A DNA stretch of 64,000 bases from Hydrolagus colliei (taxonomy: Eukaryota). The stretch lies in contig CM068758.1 in assembly GCA_035084275.1 (NCBI GenBank), positions 10,540,001 through 10,604,000 of the forward strand, in the 5' to 3' direction. Of the stretch, positions 691 to 60,399 are shown piece by piece (the first letter of the stretch is position 1; the number at the start of each line of letters is the position of its first letter). The translations under genes were made by a program, and so were the position numbers. The notes under the pieces are model-generated. The model made no database searches, had not been told where the DNA came from, and worked only from the letters and a program-made list of their open reading frames with translations.

Positions 691-2449
691 GCACGGTTAG
701 ACTCCAACAGTTACCTCAACGCACACTCTGGTTATATCAGATAGATGCAAGGATTATTATTTTATGAATCCGAACTCGCATAATGAAGATCATGAACTAA
801 ATGCAGCCATTTAAATGCTCTCAACCTTCATCATGCTAATGAAAGCACTCACGTCGTGCTTTAAAAGGTTCCGAGCCACTGATACATGATCATTTGTGTC
901 AAAAGGACAACCTGAAAATTTATCTGCTGAGGAATTATTTCAAATCAGAAACCACTTCTAAAATCATGGATTTTCCACGAGTTCAAAAACGGAAGGCAGG
1001 GGATCTAAAGTTCATTCTTTGAATTATTCAAACCCCTATCGAATGAATAGTGTTTTATTAAGGAGTGCTGAGACCTCGCACCCCATAAAAATTGCACTCA
1101 ATTTTAATTGTGCATATTATTAAATATTTACTTCATGGACTTTTACCCGTCTGTGCTTTGTTGCAGGCTCTCTGAGTGGCAGCTTTAACAATGCACACAA
1201 ACAGAAACCAGTCAGCGAACAAGGCACAAATAGGCTAATTTCAATTAATAACATAACGCAGCTTCCTTGACAGATACAAATTCACCTGTTGTATTATTTA
1301 CACAACCCGGCCTTCTGCAAATGCACCCTGGTCTGAGTCAGAGCTGGTAATTTTGATGCAAATTGAAACTAAAATATTTGCCTGACTGCCGTGTTTTACG
1401 ATGCTATCCCGGAAGGCAGAATTTACAGCTATCCTCATCAGAATTCCTAAATAAGAAGCCCGTTAGAATTTCTGCTGACCTGTCCAGTTGTTCATCGACT
1501 GGCGGAGTGCAATCCGGGTGGTAGCATTCCCTTCAATAAAATAACTAAATGATAATAATTTGGCGCGCGACTGTTTGCAGGACACTGCTGCGCGCAATCG
1601 GCTGCCGCATTTCACCCAACAACAGCAGCAAAATGACACTTGTATAGCGCCTTTCATGTCAGGAGGGCATCACAAGGGGCATACAAAACAGACAGCCAAT
1701 TGACTTTACTGTATGTTCTGTGAAACGCTTTGAGAATGTGTGAGGGGTTATTGCTGATACTGTTACGGTTACCAGAAAGAGCCTCCAATTTGCACACCCA
1801 CAGATTTCTTATTCAGGAATAATGTTAAGAAAGGATTTATCTCTCTCGCTGGCCATCTAGGCCAAACAAGTTCTCGCTTTGAGCAGCTTGTTTGCGATCA
1901 GAACGCGGAGAATCACACAATTATAGATCCACATTATTTCTGCTTTCAGGATTTGGGCCACGAGGTAGGTTGTATATGTTATCATGCGGCAGCTACACAA
2001 CCCAGAGTACACGCGCAATCCACACACAAGTATTTTATCAAAGAAATTGGCTCCTATCTCGCTGTGACCTGCGGGAATGTTTATAGGTAATGGAAATGGT
2101 GCAGGCTACCTGGTCTGGAAGGGAAGTGATAAAGCCGCAATGAGGCATGTTCTGTCTAACAAATGGGCTGCTCTACAGTACGAACTAGAAATTAGAATTA
2201 ATTCACTTAAATATTACAATCTGTAGTTAACAGGTCCTATTAGCATTTAATGGGAAACTGTAATTAATGTCCTTAAAGGTTTGCAATGGAGTTTTCTGAA
2301 TACCTTTATACCTCAGGGCAAGAGTAAGCCAGGTCAGTTCGACGGGTAAATGATTATACAAACGATGTTTTTATATTTATCCCTCTGGGTGTTTTTAAAC
2401 ACAAACAAAATTTTCTTTCCTAAAATATGGTTTGGAAAAAAAAGGTGTG

Positions 2450-2765
2450 AACGATAGTCCCTCAAGAAAAGAAACAAAATATAAAATAATAAATTGGTCA
2501 CCTAATCTACGTCTTGTTTATAATAATAATAATAATCCTTGCATTTGATATAGCGCTTTTCACATCTCATCAATGCCTCAAAGCGCTTCACAGGATATAT
2601 TGTAAAGTGAATTGACTGTATGTTTGTGGGCAAATGTTTGTGGCAATGCTGCTGTGCGCAATTGCCTGCCGAGTTTCACCCACAAAATATACAGTCAATT
2701 CATTTGACAGTTTATTCCGTGAAGCGCTTTGAGAAGTCTAGAAGACGTGAAAAGCACGGATTATT
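2450..2765. mobile_element. Nested SINE fragments (minus-strand tail inside a plus-strand SINE 3' half)
   Basis: (AAT)n-CCTTGCATTTGATATAGCGCTTTTCAC at about 2520-2635, followed by plus-strand TGTTTGTGGCAATGCTGCTGTGCGCAATTG...GTGAAAAGC. Confidence 0.75.
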
Positions 2766-3751
2766 TGTAACTGTAGGGGCTGTGGGAGTCACCTTCTTCA
2801 CCCTCCCCGTGGCTCGGCCCCGGGATCCGTTATTGGGAAGCGCTCTGTGACGCCGTCCGGCATGGAGTGAGGGAGGGTGCTATGTAAATCCAAGTTGTTG
2901 TTGTTGTTGATGCATCTTGAAGCGATTGACAGCGACAGAGTCGGAAATCACCTGTTAGTTAAGCGCTGAATATACAGGATTATATGTTCAGCTTCACAAG
3001 ATCTCACGATCAGTTCAGACGATGAATGCCCTTCTGCCCATCTGATCTCATTTCTCCTGGGTAGGTAGCCTCCCATCCTCCCATCACAGCATCAAGAGTC
3101 ATTTTAAATGAATCTAGTGCTGAATTTAGCATTTTTTGTTACTCTTTAACCCATGTCCTTTTGTTCAATCATCTGAACTAAAACCTGTTCTAGAAGCAAT
3201 GGACATGTTGCAGCCTAATTCTGCGGCTTATTTATGTATCGCTAAACAGCTCGGATTTCACACTGTAAAATTTTCAAAGCATGAAATCAGACACTGAAGC
3301 TGATCCAACTTTCTGTGGCGGTGAACACGCTATTAAACACCATCGGATCAGATTATATTTCAGAGAGAAAAGCAATGCCCTCTGGAGAGAGAAGGGTTCA
3401 TGCAATAAAACTTAAGAGGCACAGCATTTGAAAGAGGTCCTCTTTAACCAGGCTTTCTGATTTACATTATGAAAATAGAAGGAATGTAAAGTGCTCTGGG
3501 TTAAGGTGTGTGAGACGAGGAGAGATTTAATTTTGTCCTTTTCATTGTGAAAGACTTGCAAAATGGATTTGTGGAGTCTGTAGTGTTTTGGTTAGAGTCA
3601 TCGCCTCTCGGGCAAGAGGGCCTGGGTTCAATTCTCCGGCAAGGCGAAACTTTAGGTAAACCTGCTAACATCAGGTCGTACAGTTCAAACCTCTCTAAAT
3701 TAATTGCTTATTTTTCAATGCACTTTCTCTTCTGCAGAATTGTGCACATGA

Positions 3752-4075
3752 TTCCTCCCCTGCCCTCCATCCACTCCCCCCTCACCCCCGCCCCTCACGC
3801 ACTCCCCCATCACCCCAGCCCCCCGCCCACTCCCCCCTCACCCACTCCCCCTCACCTCCGCCCCCCGCCCACTCCCCCCTCACCCCCGCCCCTCACCCAC
3901 TCCCCCTCACCTCCGCCCCCCGCCCACTCCCCACAACCCCACCCCCCCACCCACTCCTCCCTCACCCACTCCCCCTCACCTCCGCCCCCTGCCCACTCCC
4001 CCCTCACCCCCCGCCCCTCACCCACTCCCCCCTCACCCCCACCCCCCCCCAGCCACTCCCCCCTCACCCACGCCT
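3752..4075. repeat. C-rich minisatellite (unit about CCCACTCCCCCTCACC), G-quadruplex-prone on the minus strand
   Basis: Degenerate tandem copies of CCCACTCCCC(C)TCACC(T)CCGCCCC read directly; explains the Pro-rich ORF 3547-4191. Confidence 0.9.
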
Positions 4076-4614
4076 CCTGGGCAGTGTTTACTAAAGAAGC
4101 TTGTAAAGATCTCAACTCGGAATTTTGTGACAAGTCCCCGAAAGATTCTTTTTTTTACCTGCTCGTCTCACAGTCAGAATTTCCTGAATAACCACTCGGT
4201 AATTATTTGGTACCAGAAAGGAACACGTGTAGACCATTCAGCCCCTCGAGCCTGTTTGGCTGCTCTATTAGATCATGGCTGATCATGATACAAACTCCTG
4301 AAATTCCACCCATGTTTACTTAGTGGATTGTTGCCTTTGTCATGACTGTACAGAGGAACGTCAGCTTTGATATTTCTGGTTTGGAAACTTTGAATAAAGA
4401 AAAGATCCAAGCAACCACATTAAAGTACAGTGCTCGGCGTTTCGCGACTGAATGAATTGGTTTGTTCCCTGCTCTTTGATACGCCTGCCTTAAGAATCAC
4501 TTTGAGTCTAGGGCAGGAGTCAAGGTCCTTAAAGTTGGTTTCCTGGCTGATTCAGGTTTAAGGCAAGCGTTTGTTGGTTGGAAAATGGCCAACATTGTTC
4601 AAGGGGTGCATTTT

Positions 4615-4942
4615 AGTAATAATAATAATAATTCTTGCATTTGATATAGCGCTTTTCACTTCTTCTAGACGTCTCAATGTGCTTCACAGAATATAATATA
4701 AAGTGAATTGACTATATGTTTGTGGGGGAAACGTGGCAGCCAATTGCGCACAGCAGCGTCCCCACAAACGGTTGTTGATTGAAATGACCAATTTTATTAT
4801 CGTGTTTTTTTTTGAGAGATTATTATTTGGTGTGTGGAGTAAGGAAGTTTGCCCAAGGTATCCCCTGATGTGCCTTGAATCGAATAAGGGTCTCACACTT
4901 GTAAGTGGTGAGTACTCTAACCACTGAGCTACAGGACTCCAT
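4615..4942 (-). mobile_element. tRNA-derived Deu-domain SINE, full length
   Basis: Reverse complement from the (AAT)n tail through to the head CTAACCACTGAGCTACAGGACTCCA. Confidence 0.9.
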
Positions 4943-5681
4943 GTAGAACTCAGTCGCTTGGTTTGAATGTTTTCCATGCAAGGCAGACGCCCGGCCTGTC
5001 ACAAGAAAACTAGCAGAGGTTACTCTTTGGGTTACTCTTTATATACATGAAGAGGCGAGAATCTTCAGCCCCCCAAGCCAAATCTTGCTCCAAACAGCAG
5101 CAACTGAGCTCAAATGATTTGACATGTCCCACGTCTGTGTCAAGCGAAGCTACTTCTGGGCTGTCCGCGTGTCTCGAGGGAATTAAACAACGCAGGCAAT
5201 GCTGTACTTTCATCTCCCGAGCAGTTTCGTATCGAATTGAATGCAGGCAGACACAACAAAATTGACTTCCCTCCACTTGTTGTTCTGCCTACTAAGTGAA
5301 ACGAGTCTGGGGATTTCAATCCGAACTGGTTTTAAAATTAATCTTTCAAAACACTGAGAACGATACAGAGCAAGCAATGTGGCACAGTCAGTCACAAAGA
5401 AAGCCGAGCGATGATCGTGCACGATCTCAAATCCTGCAATCATATTTCGCAGAGTTTATCACAGATCATAGCTATTTGCTCAGTACTTTTTCTCTCTCTG
5501 AATGCTGCCTGATTGACAATCCAAAGTCAGTTTGCAGCAAAGCTACCCCAACTTGGCTCACACAAATCACTGGCACCGTCACAATCTCCAGGTGGACCAA
5601 CATATTAAGAGACAAAAACACCAGAGACACCAGAGCTGAAATGTAATTTTGTATTGTATTGTAAACACACATCGAGCTGCT

Positions 5682-18662: not shown

Positions 18663-18749
18663 ATTACAGTATTATTAATAATGTAAGTGATTGACTTTCA
18701 CTCAGGGTCTGTGTGTTTTCCTTGTTTCCTTCAGTTAGCAACACCCTTG

Positions 18750-19200
18750 CCCCTCATTGGCTGAGACCCATCGACGATGGGTGGGGCTCGTGCTTTGTGG
18801 ACCAATCAGAGTGGAGGCAACGTTGCGACCAATCGCCTTCTGCGGTGCGGACGGTCCAGCGGCTGTGAGCCAATGGGAGTGAGGCAGGTTCACCTGGTTG
18901 GGTCGATCGGTCGCCGATTGGCTCAAACAGCAGCGAACCCCTCCCCCCCCCCCCCGCCCCGCCGCCGCCGGAGTTGGACCAATGGTGTGCGCGGCTCCGG
19001 GAGGCGGGAGGTGCAGCCCGGCGCGCGGACAGACCAGTGGCGGAGGGGGCCGTTCGAACTGACTCGAGCCCAACTGTCAGGAGTTTGTCGAGCGGCGAGG
19101 AGAGGAGAGCAGAGCAGAGCAGAGCAGAGCGCTGCGGAACGAGTGAGTGAAACAGACAGAGAGAGAGAAGAGGAAAACCTCCCGTTTGAGGAGCCGCCAA
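18750..19200 (+). promoter_or_regulatory. CpG-island, TATA-less promoter with six CCAAT (NF-Y) boxes and a GC box; likely promoter of the Sidekick gene
   Basis: ATTGG 18756-18760, CCAAT 18802-18806, 18829-18833, 18870-18874, ATTGG 18917-18921, CCAAT 18979-18983; CCCCGCCCCGCC at about 18952-18963; dense CpG; lies 1.3-1.7 kb upstream of a first coding exon. The TSS cannot be read from sequence. Confidence 0.75.
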
Positions 19201-19210
19201 AGAAAACACG

Positions 19211-19240
19211 ATGAAAAACCGGAGGAAATTAGCAGAATAA
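19211..19240 (+). other. Candidate upstream ORF (MKNRRKLAE*) in the presumed 5' leader
   Basis: acgATGAAAAACCGGAGGAAATTAGCAGAATAA with A at -3; only meaningful if this stretch is in the mature mRNA. Confidence 0.3.
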
Positions 19241-20473
19241 GCGGGGGGTTACCTTATAGAATTGACTTTGACTTCTTGCCAGACGGTTTTATTTATTTTA
19301 TTTGTGTGGGGGTGAGGGGGGAGATTTATATTTCGCTCCTCGTCTTTTTCAAAAAAAATGATAAGTATATATTAGATGACATTTGGATACAGAGGTGGGA
19401 TGTCACTAAACTAGCGCATCTTGCTGTTGAAAGAAGGCAAACCTGGTAGCCCCCCCCCCCCCCCCCCCCCTCCCTCCCCACCCACCCTCTCGACTAGACC
19501 TGACAACTTTTGAACAAAAAGCTAACTTCAAAACTTTGATTCTGCTTAAAAACGTTCAAAACTCCTCGGGAGGTCTTCCCGTCTTCCCTCCACCGCACCC
19601 CCCCCCCCCACCTCCCCACGCCAGCCTTTCCTTCTGGACGAAGATTAAAATTTCCTTTTTGTTTGTTTGTTTGTTTGTTAGTTTGTTAGTCAACTTTGAA
19701 AAAACAACACTCTCGTCTCCATTCGCATCTTTAAGGAGGGACGAAGACGTACTTAATATTTTTAAAGAGAAATAAGTTCCCCCCTCCCTCACTCCCTCCC
19801 TCCCTTCCTCCATCCCCTTTTTATTTTTTTTCCCCCATCACCCTCCTGCCCCGGAATATCTAATCCCAAGTATCGCCCATTTAGGTGGCAAACTTTAGGT
19901 GATGGGTGTGGGAAGGAGGGAGAGATCGTAAAATCAACTCGATTCAAGTTTGTTTTCCGATGTGTCCCATTTGGTTTTAAGAGGAGGAGGGAAGAAGAAG
20001 AAGAACCCCCACCCCACACACACACAAAATAGTTAAGGATACGTCTGTAAGGAGTTCATTTGCAAAGACAGGAGTTTTGAAGGAACATAAAGACCCCCCC
20101 CCAAAAAAAAAGGGGGAAGTGGGGTGGAGAGAAGAGAGGGAGAGGAGAGAGAGTCAGAGGGATTTCATCTTTCCCCTGGATTGCACAACTTGGAATTTTT
20201 GTTCTTGAAGAAACGGTTAAGTGGCTGATTCCAGGAAATCGAGACTTTGCGAGTAGGATCCGACCCCTGACCCGGGAGAAGGTTAATCATTGATTCCCAA
20301 AGGCGGCAAGGGATTAACACCCTGCCCATTACAAGGCAGCAGGCAGGCAGGCGGTACACCAACCACTCGGCTCCCAAGTAAACCCGGTTGCTTTTTGCTG
20401 AACGTTTGGGAGATTGGAACAGAAAAGGTTTTTGGGGGGACACCGTTAGGATATCTGCAATTGAACGGCGAGG

Positions 20474-21107
20474 ATGGTGAAGAACGATGCAACTCCACTG
20501 ACCCACGATCAACAGATGAGGGGATCCGCGAGTTGCGGAGTGATCGATGAGCAAGTCACCGTGCTACATGTGGATGGTGACCGCCGCCTGGAAGTGATCG
20601 AGACCCGGCCGGGAAATGGGTTAAGAGAGGCGACCGGTAACCCGAGCAGAGGGACGACGGGGGAATCGCACTCTGGTTTGAGTCAGAAACTAATCGTGGA
20701 CCCGACGACATCGGCAATCAATCATCACCCGAAGGGTCGATACCAAAGGATAGTATTGCACGAACTGATCAGGCCCCTTCACCCAGGAGAGATCAGTGAG
20801 CAGAGGCTGGACCAGCGTCCAGCTCGAATCCATAATCAGGGGGGCAGAATTGCCAAAGGAAACCGGAGCACGGACTGCACAATCAATAACCAAAAGGAAA
20901 TAAACCAAGACCACTGTTTGAGAATCATTGATAACCAGGTAATCGGGAACAGACTCAATCAACTGATTATGGGACCGAAAACCGGAGTTTTCCAAAAAAC
21001 GATCGGGTATGCTGGTGCAAGAGGAAACTTTAATTTGTTTGGATGTTTGTGGCGATTGTGGACGTTTGTGTTGTTTCACATCCACGTGCTGCAGACCCTG
21101 GCTCAAG
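20474..21107 (+). CDS. sdk1: First coding exon of protein sidekick (Ig/FN3 cell adhesion molecule), most likely sidekick-1; encodes an N-terminal extension plus the signal peptide
   Basis: Open frame from aggATGG (strong Kozak) ending LWRLWTFVLFHIHVLQTLAQ, then a phase-1 consensus donor AAG|GTAAGC at 21107/21108. Matches the recalled SDK1 signal-peptide end WWALLALQLHLLRALAQ|DDVAPYF, and the leftover G fits the Asp codon. An alternative in-frame ATG lies at 20969. Confidence 0.8.
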
Positions 21108-24100
21108 GTAAGCTAAGATTGTAAAATTGAACTAGTTTTTAACGCCCTCCATCCTCCGACTTCAACTTTAATCCTCTGAGAAATTAAATGAGGTTTCGAA
21201 AGTAGAAGATATGTTTTAAAACGTTGTTAAAATTTTGCAACCTTCGTAATGGGCAGTTAAGAATGCAGCACTTGCTGTATTTTATTCCAGCACTTTATTT
21301 TAGCACGTTAGAAATCACGTTTGCTTCGTTTAACTGATTTAGGATTTGACTTAAATTTGGTATTCTGTAACTTGTAACTCAAACCGAGTGCTCAAAGGGT
21401 TAAATGTTGAACGTGGAATTCAGTAGTATTCTTGTGCTTATCAGTTTCCAAAGGATGTTTACTCCTCTCGCTGACTTTCCAGTGCTAACGAACAACCAAC
21501 CCGAATAAAACAAATACCTTGTGAGCGAGATAACGAGACTGCAGTCGATTTAGGATACTTGTACTATATGTTGAAAATTTAAAGTTAAATCGCAAACCCG
21601 CATAAATATGCACTGATAGGCACAACCCATTCCATTCTTCTAACATGTAATTCCTTACAAAATTGCAACGCTGAGCGGCAGTAAACTGTGGGTAATATCA
21701 TTTACCATACCTATCAAATACAAGTTCACAACTCTCGTATCTGTTGATCTAGATATTGTATAATCAACACTATGTAGTGGCTTCGTGTGCACTCGAATTT
21801 GTTTTGGTAAAATCTTAAGCCACGCTTGCACTGTATAAAAACAACATTGAATCTGAGGATCAATGATGCAAGTGATTTTTATCCCGCAGTGCCCTTAACA
21901 CCGTGTGTGCTAGATAGACATTGTCAACTGGTTTTGCCGGGTGGAAAAAAACGATTGTTTGTTGCAATTTAACCATAACCCTTATTCTATCCTGACAGTC
22001 CATTCATCACCCCTCCCAGTAATAGTACTCCAGTTTACTCGAATCCCTGAAGATGTATTGCTTCTTTCTGTTAGATGGTAAATCTCTTGACTCCCAAACC
22101 TTTTGATTTTAGTATTAAAAGATCATTTTTATCATTTAAATATTTAAATTTATATTATATAGTACCTAATTTTATTAAATTGACTTCTATTTAGTTCTCC
22201 TGAAATCTGAAATTAACTCAATGAACCTGGTCCACATTCTAAACTTTGCAATTCCAGTTTCAGATTGATTGCAGCTAAATCATAACTGTGTTATGATTAT
22301 TTTCAATTATCTCTAGGGATAGATCTTAATATTTATTCAAATTGATATCTACCATTTTAAGAAATATGCAGTTATTGAACAGCAAAATAATAAAAACTAA
22401 AATACTGAGGTAATCTGACAACAACAACAAAATTACATTTAAAGACCGCCTTTCATGTTGGGAAAACATCATTCAACACAGTTGTTTCAATCCATGTATG
22501 GGAGCCTCTCAGACCATTTCACCCTGTTCCAAAGTAAGTTCTCAAAATGAGTTGAGATTTGTGTTGTTGTGCCTCTCTGATCTTCACAGACCACTTACCA
22601 TCTGGTTAAGAGACTGGTATGGGCAGCTAAATCTTTCCAAGGGCTCTGTCAGTGTTGTTCTGGACTGCTGCCAGGATGTAACTTATATTAGACTAGGGCT
22701 GATTTGCCAACTGATTTGTGTTTTCCCCTTCTGTCTAAGTCAATACGTACCGGCCTACATTTGCCTGTGATGGTGTAGGAACTATGTATAGTGGGGAATT
22801 GAACCATCATACTTTCATTTCCATGCTACGGAAATATGTTTTCGCTTTTTTAACTTGTATTGAAAATTATATATAAGTTATAACTTAACAAGACTATTTT
22901 GGTTTAGAAAACCATGGAAAAATCCAAAATAAATCCCAGGGCAGGTCACTGAAATTACATTATTTTGCTCCCCAAAAATGTACCAGTACTAATATAGTTT
23001 TATAATGTATTGCTTGTTGCATATTTATATTTAATGATGTGGTAGCATTTATATATCCGTGTATCTGTCTGAGGGTACAAGTACCAAAGAAAATTAGTGT
23101 CCCCTGAACCAATTTTTATTTGTCCCAGGCAAATTAAGTTGCTATTTTCTCACTCCATTAAAATACTTTCTTTAAGTGTCAAGTTGTCACATTGAAGGTA
23201 AATTTTAGGAATAGGTGGCCGTTGTGCCCAGTAGTCTGATCTCTGCCACTGGATTTTGGTTTCCTTTGAACAATGGTGGTGGAGATGAAGGTTGTTGGAT
23301 CTTATGGACATGCAAACTGACACTGTGACTGAATCTATTATCCGATGTATGTTTGTGCTTTGCAAATGGATGAAAATCATTTCGAAAACTGTCTTCAAAT
23401 AAATCAGGAATTTCTATGCACTGCAGGTGCTAAAAACATTCTCAGTGTTCTTATTACGAGAACATGCAACACTTGCCAAGCCCAGTTTTTAATAAATAAA
23501 TAATCCTTGCAATTGATACAGCGCTTTTCACATCTCAAAGCAATTCACGGGACTCATTGGATAGTGTAGTCACTGTATATTGTGTAGACAAAAAGCTACT
23601 TCCACGTACATGTTTGTCACCTAAGAGTAATAATTCCAATTCTTACTGGGCCATCTTAACTCTTAGGAAACCAGATATACAATTTTAGGAATAATTTGAA
23701 ACATTGGACAGCATTTTCTTTAGTGATGGAGGCTATTTCATATACCGATCTGCTAGCAGCAAAATAAATCCTTTGCTATAATTTCATAAATGTGTTCCCC
23801 TTTCTATGACTTTAGATCTATGTAATGGACAGTTTTCAGTAATAAAGCTTTTTCATACCTTTCAGTTGCTGTCACACTATTAATGTATTGCGGCCTGAAA
23901 TGAGCTTTCAGGCCATTAAGAAAGGTTTGGGTATGAGGAAAAACCCTCCAGCAAAATTAGTTTTATAGGAGCAATTCAAGTAATTGCATCTATAAAGGTC
24001 AACTGACAAGGTGGAAATTTCTGCATAATTGTAAATGTGAGCAACAGGGATAATGATAAAGTTTGCATCCATTTTCTGTTGCAACTTGGTCCTGGCAGCA

Positions 24101-54904: not shown

Positions 54905-56180
54905 AAAATAAGAACATAAGAATAAGGAGCAGAAGTAGGCTATTCGGCCCTTCGAGCCTGCTCCGCCATTCAATAAGATCATGGCTGATCTTCTCACCTA
55001 ACTCTAATTACCTGCCCCATCCCCATATCCCCTAATCCCTCTATTTAAAACAAATCTATCAGCCTCAGCCTTGAAAATGTTCAAGGACTGAGCATCTACA
55101 GCCTTCTGGGGTAATGAATTCCATAAATTCACTACCCTCTGAGTGAAGAAATGTTTCCTCAACTCTGTTCTAAGCGGCTGACCCTTAATTTTAAGACTGT
55201 GACCCCTGGTTATAGATTCTCCTACCAGGGGAAACAGTCCCTCAGTGCCTACTTTATCTAGCCCTTTAAGAATCTTATAGATTCATAGAATTTTACGGCA
55301 CAACAGGAGGCCATTCGGCCCATCTAGTCTGTGCCGGCTCTTTGAAAAGATATGTTTCAATAAGATCCCCCCCTAATTCTTCTGTACTCCAGAGAATACA
55401 GCCCTAGTTTATTCAACCTATCCTCATAGGTCAGTCCCCTCATTCCAGGAACTAACCTAGTGAATCTACACTGCACCGCCTCTAAGGCAAGGATGCCCTT
55501 TTTTAAATAAGGAGACCAAAACTGCACACAATACTCTTGCAGTTGCAGCAAGACTTCCCTCCTCTTGTACTCTAAACCTTTTGAAATGAACGCTAGCATG
55601 CCGTTTGCCTTCTTAGTTGCTTGCTGCACCTAACCTTTTGGGACTGGTGTACAAGGACACCCAAATCCCTTTGAACACCAACACTGTCTAACTTTGAACC
55701 TGGTTCAATTCCCAGGCAGGACAAACCCTGCCTAACCTTTTGAAATGAACGCTAGCATGCCGTTCGCCTTCTTAGTTGCTTGCTGCACCTGCAAACTAAC
55801 TTTTTGGGACTGGTGTACAAGGACACCCAAATCCCTTTGAATACTAACACTATCTAACTTTTCCCCCTCTAGAAAATAATCTATTCTTTTATTCTTGCTA
55901 CCTAGGTGAATAATTTCACACTTGCTAACATTGAATTCCATCTGCCACCTACTTGCCCACTGCCCTAGCCTATCTATATCTTGTTGCAATCTTTTGCATC
56001 ATCCTCAGAGCTCACTCTGCTACCTAGTTTAGTGTCATCCGCGAATTTAGACACGTTACATTCAATGTTCTCATCTAGGTCATTGATATAAATAGTAGAT
56101 AGCTGAGGCCCAAGCACTGATCCTTGTGGCACTCCACTAGTTACATCCTACCAATTCGAGAATGATCCGTTTATCGCTAC
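54905..56180 (-). mobile_element. 5'-truncated CR1 LINE with an internal duplication and small insertions
   Basis: Minus ORFs [23 protein letters not shown] and YCVQFWSPYLKK..LEAVQCRFTRLVPGM; 3' end AGAACATAAGAATAAGGAGCAGAAGTAGGC. Confidence 0.92.
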
Positions 56181-57234
56181 ATCTAAATGATACTTTCTAG
56201 ATGATACTTTCTGTTCTGTTTCCTCAAGTTCAAAATCATTCAGCTGCCTCCGCCCTCCGAACTGCCACCCTTCTCCATTTCCCTCCCAAACTCCAGGCCC
56301 GTACGCAGGGGGGGTGCGTACGCACCCCCCCCAAATTATAAAAGGTCCACATTTTCCGGGGTAGAGAATTGTATTTTTTATCAAATTTAAATACCAAGTA
56401 AATTTATTGAGCATTTGTGTAACAATCAGTTCTTCAAAACTATGTATAAATTATGAACACACATCTTTGAATGTTTTAGTATTAATATAAAATTATCGAG
56501 TCGCACACCAGAATCGGCGTCTACCCAAAACATACCGCGTCGATAGACGAGTCACGAGTCTGTGACTCGTGACTGGATAAACATAGGCGCGCGCCAAGAC
56601 TCAAATCCATCCTCGTTTGGAAATCATCCCGTATACAGCCACAAGTGTAGCACCACTACTGGAAGCTAAAATCATCTTTTCATCTGATCACCGTAAGTAA
56701 AAATTGCTCAAGTTTTGAGAGGTGTGACTGTAATGCTAGCAAACAATGACAACATATTTACAAGCTTCTGAGAAATTAAAGCTTTTGAGAACCCAACCAA
56801 AAAGTTATATGTGTCTGGACGGGAATGCCTATCTTTAAAAAAGATACTCATGGACGTAGGCCTATGCTTTAGCGCCTATGTCTACGTGGTGTGTCAATTG
56901 GAAATCATCCCGTATACAGTCACTACATAAAAAGGTAGCAACACTTTGTGGAAGCTGAAATCGTATTTTAATCTGATAAATGTAAGTAAAACTGACTTAA
57001 GTTTTGATAGGCGTGTTTCTGAAATATCACGTTTCTTGTTTTGACTTGATTATCACATTTGATTTATATTATTAAAAATGTATTCCTGTAATTAAAAATT
57101 GCTTTTAGAGACGTCCACTGGTATGCAAAAAAAATATGACCGCAAAGATAAACAGTGCGACTTTATTTCACATTCAGTTTTGTACCCAGAGTGAAAAAAC
57201 ATCAATGTCGCACGAATTTGGCATAAAAATAGTT

Positions 57235-57653
57235 TCACCATCATCTGATCGAGCGAACTCGGGCATTGACAACCACACTTCTCCACTGATCCCTTCTCTC
57301 CATGCAGCCTGACAACTCCCGCCTGCCAATACCCGAATCGCGCTCCAGAGTATCGATGTAGGTTAGGGTCGGTCTACCTCGTGTTCTGTGACCGTGCAAT
57401 GGTTCCCATATGATAGTAGGACTATGGACAGTTTCCTCCCGGCTTCTCCAGCTATGTCCGCTAAACCTAAGACGCCTCTGCAGTAATGTCTGTGATACCA
57501 GTGTGGTAGTGTACCATATAGCTCACTATTTGTCAGATGCTGTCGCCAGTAAAATTCAGGGCGTCTCTTAGAAGCCTGGTATATACCTCATGAGTCACCT
57601 AATCTCCTGGTCAAGGTTTGCGTAAGTGTCCAGCATTCTGCTCCATATAGGAG
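57235..57653 (-). mobile_element. 3' end of an RTE-clade LINE embedded antisense in the hAT element
   Basis: With frameshifts, the minus strand reads LLYGAECWTLTQTLTRRL..YTRLLRDALN.YWRQHLTNSELYGTLP.VSQTLLQRRLRFSGHSWRSREE...IIWEPLHGHRTRGRPTLTYIDTLERDSG...MERRDQWRSVVVNARVRSIR* followed by a TGA-TGG-TGA end. Confidence 0.85.
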
Positions 57654-57779
57654 CGACTTTCAGCACTCGCGTTAATGCACATTCATTATAATATGGAAAT
57701 CGATATTGGTAGAGTGGTTGACGTATTCGCTTCAAAGCGACCAAGGCGTCTCGAATATGGAACGCTATTAAATAATTAA
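57651..57779 (+). pseudogene. hAT transposase C-terminal remnant (end of the dimerisation domain, ZMYM1/THAP12-like)
   Basis: Translates ERLSALALMHIHYNMEIDIGRVVDVFASKRPRRLEYGTLLNN*, the ERLxxLALxHIH...IDxxxVxDxFAxxxPRRL motif. Confidence 0.85.
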
Positions 57780-60399
57780 TTTCCCCTCCCTTATTTTTTC
57801 AAGTATTTTTTCGTCAGATCAGTATTGCTTGATGGGTCACTTCCTTTAATTTTGATTCGAAATAAATAAATAAAAACTAACTGCACTATTGCTCACAGTT
57901 CAACGATATTTTCAGGATAATGCTGATAACAGGCTTGTAACACGTGTGAATTAACTGTTTTACACTGATTTTCAGTTTCTGTATATTTTCTTGTCTTTTA
58001 TAAAATTTGCTTTGCTGGAATATCTGAGCACATAATTCATACTTTACTCTTACATTATTGTTCATTACAGTCCGAAAGAAATTGAGTCTTAGGATAACAA
58101 TGCAGAACAACTTATTAATTACTGTCAATCTGTAGTTTATGATCATTTTCTCTTATACGCATACATTTATCAAGCATTCGTCATTGTACTGTTTTAATTG
58201 GATTGTAATTTACTTTATCGTTCACATTCCGTACATCATCGAGTCAATCATCGAGTCAACAATCGTGTTTGCTATTATCGGTGAACACATTCGACCTTCC
58301 CAAAAAATTTAGACACGGACCGGGGAAAATAAAAACACTGAATAAATAATGATGCTCTTAAACACCAAGGGCATGAAACATTTACCGTTCATATTGGATC
58401 TTCTGAACCGATTAAATAAAACCTCAAACTGAGTAAAACGTCGGAGCCTCGAGGGGGCTTCGGGGGCAGCCCGCAAGCCCCCGGCCATTGTTGGTCCCAT
58501 CACTAGCAATTCGCACCCCCCCATTAAAAATCCTGCGTACGGCCCTGAACTCCGACCCATACCTATCCCTTCTTCCTTCCATACTCTCAAACCTGTCTCT
58601 CCTCTATCATCACCACTGTATGATCTGTGAAGTCTACCACCTGCTCCCTTGACCCCATCCCCACCCCTCTCCTTACCTCCCAGCTCCACCTCCTCATTCC
58701 CCTACTCTCCAACACTATCAATCTCTCCCTATCATCTGGCACTGTTTGCATCCCTCTCAAAACAGCCACAATGAACCTCTCCTGAAGAAACCTTCCCTGG
58801 ACACATCCCTGCTTTCCAGTTATCTACCCATTTCCAACTTACCTTTTCTTTCCAAGGTCCTTGAAAAAGTTGTTACTTCCTAGCTTTACTCTTTACTCTT
58901 TCCTCTCCTCCCACTCTATCCAAGAGCCCTTCCAATCAGATTTCCATGCTGCTCAGAGCATGGAAACTGCTCTAGTCAAGATCACAAATGACATCTGTCC
59001 ATCTGTGACCAGGGTTCTCTCTGTCTCTTTGTCCTCCTCGACCTCTGCCGCCTTTGACACCATGGACCACTTGATCCTCCTCCACCGCCTCTCCTCTCAC
59101 CTCAACCTTCAAGGTTCTGACCTTGACTGGTTCAGGTCCTACCTCTCACACCATCTTCACTTTGTTTCCACCAACGGTCTCACTTCCATCGTCCGCACCG
59201 ACTCTACGGTGCTCCTCGAGGGTTCTGTCCTCGGTCCCCTACTCTTCAATCAATCAATCAATCAATCAAACATACATTTATATAGCGTCTTTCACGTCAA
59301 GAGGACACCTCTGCATGCTTCATTCAAATCATTCAAATCATTCAAAACTCTGCAGCTCATGTTCTCTCCCGCACTGGGCTCTGCGACCCCATTAGCCCCA
59401 CCCTTGCCCGGCTCCACTGGCTCCCCATCCCACAGAGTATAGAATTCAAGATTCTCATCCTCACTTTGGTGGCCCTCCATGGCCTTGTGCCCTCCTACCG
59501 TTCTGACCTGCTGACCCTCTATCAACCTGTCGCTACCATTGGTGGCCGAGCTTTCAGCCTTTTCTGCCTCCACACTTTGATATTCCATCCCACAGTCCTT
59601 TCGCTTTACTCCCTCCTTTGTCTCCTCTAAGGCTGGTTAGGTTAGCGGGCAGGTTGGTACGGGGTTAGGAGGTCTCAGAAATAGGAGGGTGCAAGGCCAT
59701 GGAGGCCTTTGAAGGTGAGGACCAGGATCTTGAACTGTATCCTCTGTGTGATGGGAAGCCAGTGGAGTCCATTTTAAACATTCAACAAATACACTTCCAC
59801 CTTTTTGTAGCATACCTAACTAACTCAAACGATTATGACTATTTCCTGAAAGCACTAAGTCATTGTGATGTAGTGATCAATTAAATATTGGGATACATTT
59901 TATAGGCAGGCATTTCAATGCAAGTTGAAATAACTAATTTCAGTCTTGCATAGATCATTGGTGATATTGCATTTGAAATACTGTAGCATTTGAATACCTT
60001 GTCATGACAAAAGAGATTTGGATAAAGCCATCTGATCTAATTTTTTCATAATATGACCCCTAGCATCTTTCCATAAATGGTAATGAGCTGATTCTTAAAT
60101 GACTTCAGTGTCATAGCTTCAACCATCTTTCCTGGTAACCTGTTCCCACTGTTGATTAACCTTTGTGTAAATAATGACTCCCTAATGTTTAGCCTAATCT
60201 TGCAATCTGAATAATATTCAGTCATTATGACTTGCTTTGAAAAGTGTAAGAAATGTTGAGAGAATGAGCTGTCGATGTATAAAAGATTGTTTAATCCTTT
60301 AGTCATTTCGTTTAGCGTGTTTATTTATAAAATATATTTCTTTAGGGATAAAATGTTTCAGTAAAAAAGTATCTCCCCCACAATTAAATACTAAGGATA

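Follow-up and report, generated by a model that had tools for sequence, protein, structure and literature searches.

The element at 56294-58547 of the window (the whole 64,000-nucleotide stretch analysed here) has no coding capacity and arose by internal deletion from a hAT transposon in which a remnant of an RTE-type LINE was already present, a remnant probably gained in an earlier host and brought into the present one by horizontal transfer. We hold the anatomy and the order of events to be close to certain, and the foreign origin of the LINE through transfer to be probable. The element is real, multicopy and explained by known processes.

Structure of the element and its insertion site

The features of the element, in the order in which they lie in the window, are as follows.

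56289..56293, plus strand: left 5-bp target-site duplication (TSD), AACTC
56294..56309, plus strand: left terminal inverted repeat (TIR), 16 bp, starting CAGG
56308..56331, no strand: perfect subterminal palindrome of 24 bp
56310..57226, plus strand: left non-coding arm of the hAT parent
57227..57235, minus strand: remaining copy of the 9-bp TSD of the RTE, AAACTATTT on the RTE strand
57236..57653, minus strand: dead 3' end of an RTE-type LINE, (TGA)n tail and ORF2 C-terminus, 418 bp
57653..57654, no strand: join of an internal deletion of about 2.6 kb
57654..57779, plus strand: final 41 codons and stop of the hAT transposase (846 aa)
57780..58531, plus strand: right non-coding arm of the hAT parent
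58532..58547, minus strand: right TIR, 16 bp
58548..58552, plus strand: right 5-bp TSD, AACTC
58553..59630, plus strand: decayed LINE ORF2, the insertion target of the element (RVT_1, E=1.8e-4)

The two TIRs are complementary at 15 of 16 positions and, among TSD lengths from 2 to 11 bp, only 5 bp matches at this locus, in agreement with the TIRs and the TSD reported in an earlier note on this DNA. The G-run/TGCG motif of the palindrome region is found again close to the right end of the element, and the left arm contains a direct repeat of about 110 bp (56617-56726 and 56898-57007, about 80%). The decayed ORF2 on the right, which we take to be L2-like, resumes on the left flank and is thus interrupted by the element, and one sequencing-run contig links the two flanks without it.

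The coding remnants were identified through their relatives. The plus-strand frame 57651-57779 had 159 relatives at E<=0.001 and matched the C-terminus of hAT transposases, with the Pfam domain Dimer_Tnp_hAT present in all six long matches tested. The minus strand at 57236-57653 is the end of a reverse transcriptase (RT)-encoding ORF, 83% identical to P0001 over 93 aa, which bears out the antisense RTE-type ORF2 end of about 420 bp described earlier. Pfam returned nothing relevant for the RTE and hAT fragments of the window (the 42-aa hAT remnant alone gave no hAT domain match) and no match for 18 window ORFs, and no host gene was found near the element as a divergence baseline. Elsewhere in the window, the element is bordered on its left (55004-56150) by a presumably CR1-like fragment whose overlapping duplications are 159 and 166 bp apart, and the regions 18700-19250 and 20165-21124 contain a promoter-like stretch rich in GC as well as long frames that overlap on the two strands and match nothing in Pfam.

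Copies in the genome

The window element is not alone. A genome search with it gave 1674 candidates and, among the 40 scored, 31 places near full length, window included, the others being 94-96% identical to the window element. In each of the 30 copies fetched, RTE and hAT tail are joined (one lacks a few more bases) and the flanks differ, the pattern for which the earlier note proposed a check. A 17-mer spanning the join has 611 exact occurrences in the genome, a lower bound on window-type copies, and its reversed control does not occur at all. With flanks and TSDs differing among copies, the proposal that the hybrid moved as a unit holds, as does the description of a DNA transposon carrying a retroelement fragment, since the RTE remnant sits inside a mobile hAT. 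A one-off event at the window locus is ruled out by the near-full-length copies and the 611 exact joins.

Among the 28 copies with both ends resolved (30 examined), TSDs were of 5 bp in 18, 6 bp in three, 7 bp in one and 4 bp in three, and three had none. The canonical hAT TSD of 8 bp was found in 0/28, which together with the TSD of the window element excludes an 8-bp reading. TSD length ranges from 4 to 7 bp within one subfamily (L007, L011, L017, L020, L025, L027, L029).

Copies diverge from their majority sequence by 1.3-2.4%, depending on the segment (RTE part 1.6%, left arm 2.1%, right arm 1.3%), and the window element appears to be a member of a young burst of deletion derivatives. The window type accounts for 6/30 sampled RTE 3' ends, and several deletion subfamilies of the parent exist. 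Other subfamilies have differing breakpoints (L112, L114-L116, L119, L121, L122, L125, L129-L132, L134-L136, L139), for instance parent 1219 to 4861 and 1476 to 4972, and a short RTE-free derivative, a MITE, joins window 56818-56927 to 58491; its depth is several-fold above that of the parent in sequencing runs X5, X9 and X10. The arms of the element are very deep in run X1. About ten hAT copies with near-identical scores at G000:C3:104.1-104.85 Mb and C111 were probably spread by segmental duplication rather than transposition.

The full-length parent and its LINE insertion

Searching the genome with the transposase gave 152 matches. In seven of 20 fetched loci (L061, L062, L064-L068; 4.65-5.3 kb) the left part of the window element including the RTE is followed by the transposase and then by the right part, the loci aligning to element positions 1-1369 and 1358-2254 with the transposase in between. 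The parent is a transposon of 4.9-5.1 kb, putatively of hAT5 type, with an 846-codon transposase, RTE piece included; one example lies at G000:C1:130836545-130841666. Locus L073 has an 851-codon open frame, 846 aa from Met, with the domains DUF4371 (PF14291, 66.5 bits; cut-off 32.1) and Dimer_Tnp_hAT (PF05699, 35.1 bits; cut-off 21.4). At the level of primary sequence the parent transposase contains ADEVT, GYDGA, HCSGH, TRW and CERS motifs, which may correspond to the hAT DDE catalytic motifs; PDB sequence searches gave nothing significant for it. Two further open frames 28-29% like the transposase query, one of 1467 codons (L080:3809-8209, G000:C6) and one of 742 codons (G000:C6:30826805), are presumably domesticated THAP12/PRKRIR-like genes.

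In every parent seen, the RTE insert lies antisense about 170 bp upstream of the transposase ATG. It extends 44 bp beyond the window join to a fixed 5' truncation, is flanked by its own 9-bp TSD, whose second copy falls within the segment deleted from the window element, and its (TGA)n tail begins at its stop codon. The TSD, the fixed truncation, the tail and the place upstream of the ATG therefore indicate a clean LINE insertion that spared the ORF. LINEs of the RTE clade have a very short 3' UTR, a tandem-repeat tail, 5' truncation and a TSD, a pattern that the cargo fits; we assume the label RTE from C-terminal motifs, the matches including no named RTE reference. As a first step, then, an RTE LINE would have retrotransposed into the hAT upstream of its untouched ORF. 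A stop and two frameshifts in the insert are common to the parents examined, so the insert had decayed before the family spread. Nor is the RTE piece of the earlier note a single open frame: the majority sequence of 30 copies already carries the two frameshifts.

The insert is 90% identical to P0011 (133 of 147 aa), a protein that carries RVT_1, that is a non-LTR RT, in the same ORF as the matching region. P0011 belongs to an 11-protein metagenome cluster, beyond which the next relatives are at most 60% identical, and the Atlas gave generic RT clusters only. A 90%-identical RTE family thus exists in metagenome assemblies; no donor RTE was found in the host. One upstream RTE query had no match in the host genome, a second gave at best 23-34% identity (92/92 candidates scored) and a third 26-30% (121 of 12568 candidates scored). 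These searches score top candidates only, which old broken copies could escape; the same tool recovered relatives of the hAT query down to 28%. Repeated 1058-codon RT frames on small contigs (L046-L054; C7, C8, C9, C12, C60, C188) and a tandem array that carries an RT and repeats about every 3.29 kb (G000:C6:81.49-81.53 Mb) are possibly site-specific LINEs.

In the samples examined, the RTE was seen only within the hAT. The first 30 of 516 exact genome matches to the RTE 3' end all lie in the hAT arm, 20/20 exact matches to the uncut RTE reading stop at the same truncation and TSD, and wherever the hAT segment that separates RTE and ATG was present in a fetched locus (30 fetched of 40 scored), RTE sequence was there too, 30 times out of 30; no RTE-free parent was found in the genome among the loci examined. 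Because its family was not found elsewhere in the host genome, the LINE piece likely came in with the hAT, which itself likely arrived from another species.

It could be argued instead that the RTE inserted within the host lineage, where a family with a short period of activity, or one transferred on its own, landed in an early hAT copy before it died out or became too rare to be seen. The ordinary retrotransposition hallmarks of the insert need no foreign host, the host RTE searches are lower bounds, and a contig of run X11, a relative of the host, which aligns to window 57474-57652 and 58250+, contains an RTE stretch 88% identical to ours (180 nt with 22 differences). Against this, none of the three host searches gave an RT-bearing relative above 34% identity, a single truncation is shared by all 20 uncut copies, a family active enough to reach so rare a target would be expected to survive in further copies only a few percent diverged, and the X11 stretch is itself joined to the hAT right arm, so that we regard an insertion within the host lineage as unlikely. 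The X11 stretch may be an older or separate derivative.

Probable horizontal transfer

The host encodes RAG2 and is therefore a jawed vertebrate; its CR1/L2/SINE landscape might point to a cartilaginous fish. The best transposase matches are an ENA protein and two proteins of the vent snail Gigantopelta aegis at 83-84% identity, followed by a cluster with Hydra members at 65% and by named teleosts at 45-48%; with the majority protein of the host copies the values are 82-86% for the former and 44-48% for the teleosts. The relatives, annotated as P52rIPK/ZMYM-like, come from fish and marine invertebrates. In a phylogeny of 44 transposases, drawn from the 120 listed and including every named one, the host, ENA and snail sequences form a clade with support 1.0, within a group with Hydra and Stylophora and apart from the teleost clade. 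Private changes in 19 transposase copies gave a pN/pS of 0.73, calculated with no mutation-bias correction on copies picked as best transposase matches, and 20 new stops overall, close to neutral decay. Taken together, the similarity, the tree and the near-neutral decay would favour horizontal arrival. At 82-86% protein identity, the snail would be a relative of the donor, not the donor, and no organism was found that has the donor RTE together with this hAT.

Twelve sequencing runs hold part of the stretch. Run X1 is not independent evidence, as the assembly may derive from it. Runs X5, X9 and X11 share the high-copy SINE and LINE repeats of the host, and one 192-nt flank piece of X11 has four base differences from it; because of these common repeats the three runs represent relatives of the host, not donors, and runs of other organisms are ruled out as proof of transfer. 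In the runs examined the parent is present in its fullest form, with parent sequence continuing on either side of the join, and no contig bridging a window-type join was found among the run contigs listed. Relative to the SINE, depth in X5, X9 and X11 is about 5 to 50 times lower than in X1 for the transposase and at least 100 times lower for the arms, a hint that the burst was confined to the host lineage, depth not being equal to copy number. As a third step, the loaded hAT would have reached an ancestor shared by the host and its near relatives. With somewhat less confidence than for the foreign origin itself, we lean towards a coding hAT5 that crossed between phyla with the LINE insertion on board, leaving an earlier host that was probably an invertebrate for a jawed vertebrate, where it spread the insertion to about a thousand sites.

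The RTE remnant as a probable passenger

The RTE remnant was most likely a neutral passenger. Had it been kept for a role in cis, as a promoter, a 5' UTR or an antisense regulator of the transposase, it might have helped the burst, and its constant place upstream of the ATG, together with a divergence slightly below that of the left arm, could be read in this way. The right arm is as conserved, however; many subfamilies lack part of the remnant, the near-intact-ORF copies L073 and L074 lack about 300 bp of it, an abundant short derivative lacks it entirely, and a founder effect suffices for its presence in all copies. A role in cis is accordingly improbable.

The internal deletion

The join in the window removes about 2.6 kb of the parent, namely the RTE 5' end, the 5' UTR and the first ~805 transposase codons, and cuts the RTE 44 bp short of its original truncation. 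It is recognised as a deletion because the hAT side of the parent reads CAAGAA before CGACTTTCAG, not TAGGAG. The comparison covers every transposase-bearing parent in which the motif was found, each reading CAAGAA or a one-base variant, and TAGGAG runs on as RTE. The TAGGAG overlap, formerly read as a microhomology junction, is thus not common to both parents, and of the 42 codons previously assigned to the hAT, 41 are hAT and the first Glu is encoded by RTE bases. That a LINE insertion with coupled deletion replaced the transposase through this microhomology, making the hybrid in one event, is scarcely credible: the frames do abut in the window and the hybrid did spread, but there are parents that combine the RTE insert with a long transposase frame, the RTE runs past the join to a TSD of its own upstream of the ORF, and the hAT side differs at the supposed overlap, the loss of the transposase being a separate, later deletion.

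Perfect microhomology at the exact join is 0 bp. Seven matching bases, ACTTTCA, adjoin both breakpoints (p~0.005 against 20,000 random breakpoint pairs), which would fit template switching during gap repair (cf. the available text of PMC8277862). In a fourth step, the observed deletion may thus have arisen when an excision gap was repaired with template switching, likely aided by this match; the deletion placed the RTE remnant beside the final 41 transposase codons. Finally, transposase from full-length parents would have moved the TIR-bearing derivative to the more than 600 sites at which its copies, with their TSDs, are found.

Comparison with known systems

There is nothing unusual in the mechanism itself, which combines a nested insertion with an internal deletion and mobilisation in trans. 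To our knowledge, donors of horizontal transposon transfers into vertebrates are seldom traceable. Where an insertion is nested and dated and the recipient lacks its family, the previous host can be tested for specifically and the sequence of events is settled: if our reading is true, the LINE fossil is a passport stamp, and the donor lineage holds the RTE family and an RTE-free copy of the hAT. It is also a warning for annotation, as about a thousand RTE matches in this genome would be counted as LINE activity though spread by a DNA transposase. A literature search, with Repbase Reports, Repbase and Dfam outside its scope, found no description of the family.

Members of the hAT superfamily have short TIRs starting with CA or TA, a pattern to which the 16-bp TIR starting CAGG conforms. 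Internal-deletion derivatives of the Ac/Ds type keep both ends, lose the transposase and outnumber their parent. Similarly, the window type keeps both ends without a transposase and has 611 exact motif matches against 20 for the uncut form; it differs in that the left breakpoint lies within a nested LINE, which gives it the look of a LINE/hAT fusion.

According to the accessible part of PMC12730594 (citing Kapitonov and Jurka 2007), the hAT5 group is defined by a 5-bp TSD. The family described here, a candidate member, resembles it in its hAT transposase and its mostly 5-bp TSDs, and differs in the RTE insert upstream of the ORF and in the TSDs of 4, 6 and 7 bp.

In mammals, the Mariner MITE MER6/MER6A spread a fragment of the fish V-SINE in genomes lacking that SINE (PMC6887750). 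As there, a DNA transposon here spreads a non-LTR fragment in a genome in which the donor family was not found. MER6 is 39% diverged from its SINE donors, and the portion of that paper available describes no loaded coding parent, whereas here a coding parent carries the cargo, the TSD and tail of the LINE survive, and a 90%-identical donor family exists.

Lastly, Pack-TIR elements, as presented in the available text of PMC8277862, capture their cargo through template switching or the filling of gaps, with neighbouring host DNA as a frequent source. Our element is likewise a multicopy TIR element with foreign sequence, but it falls outside the Pack-TIR definition given there, since its cargo arrived by its own retrotransposition and still bears its own TSD and tail.
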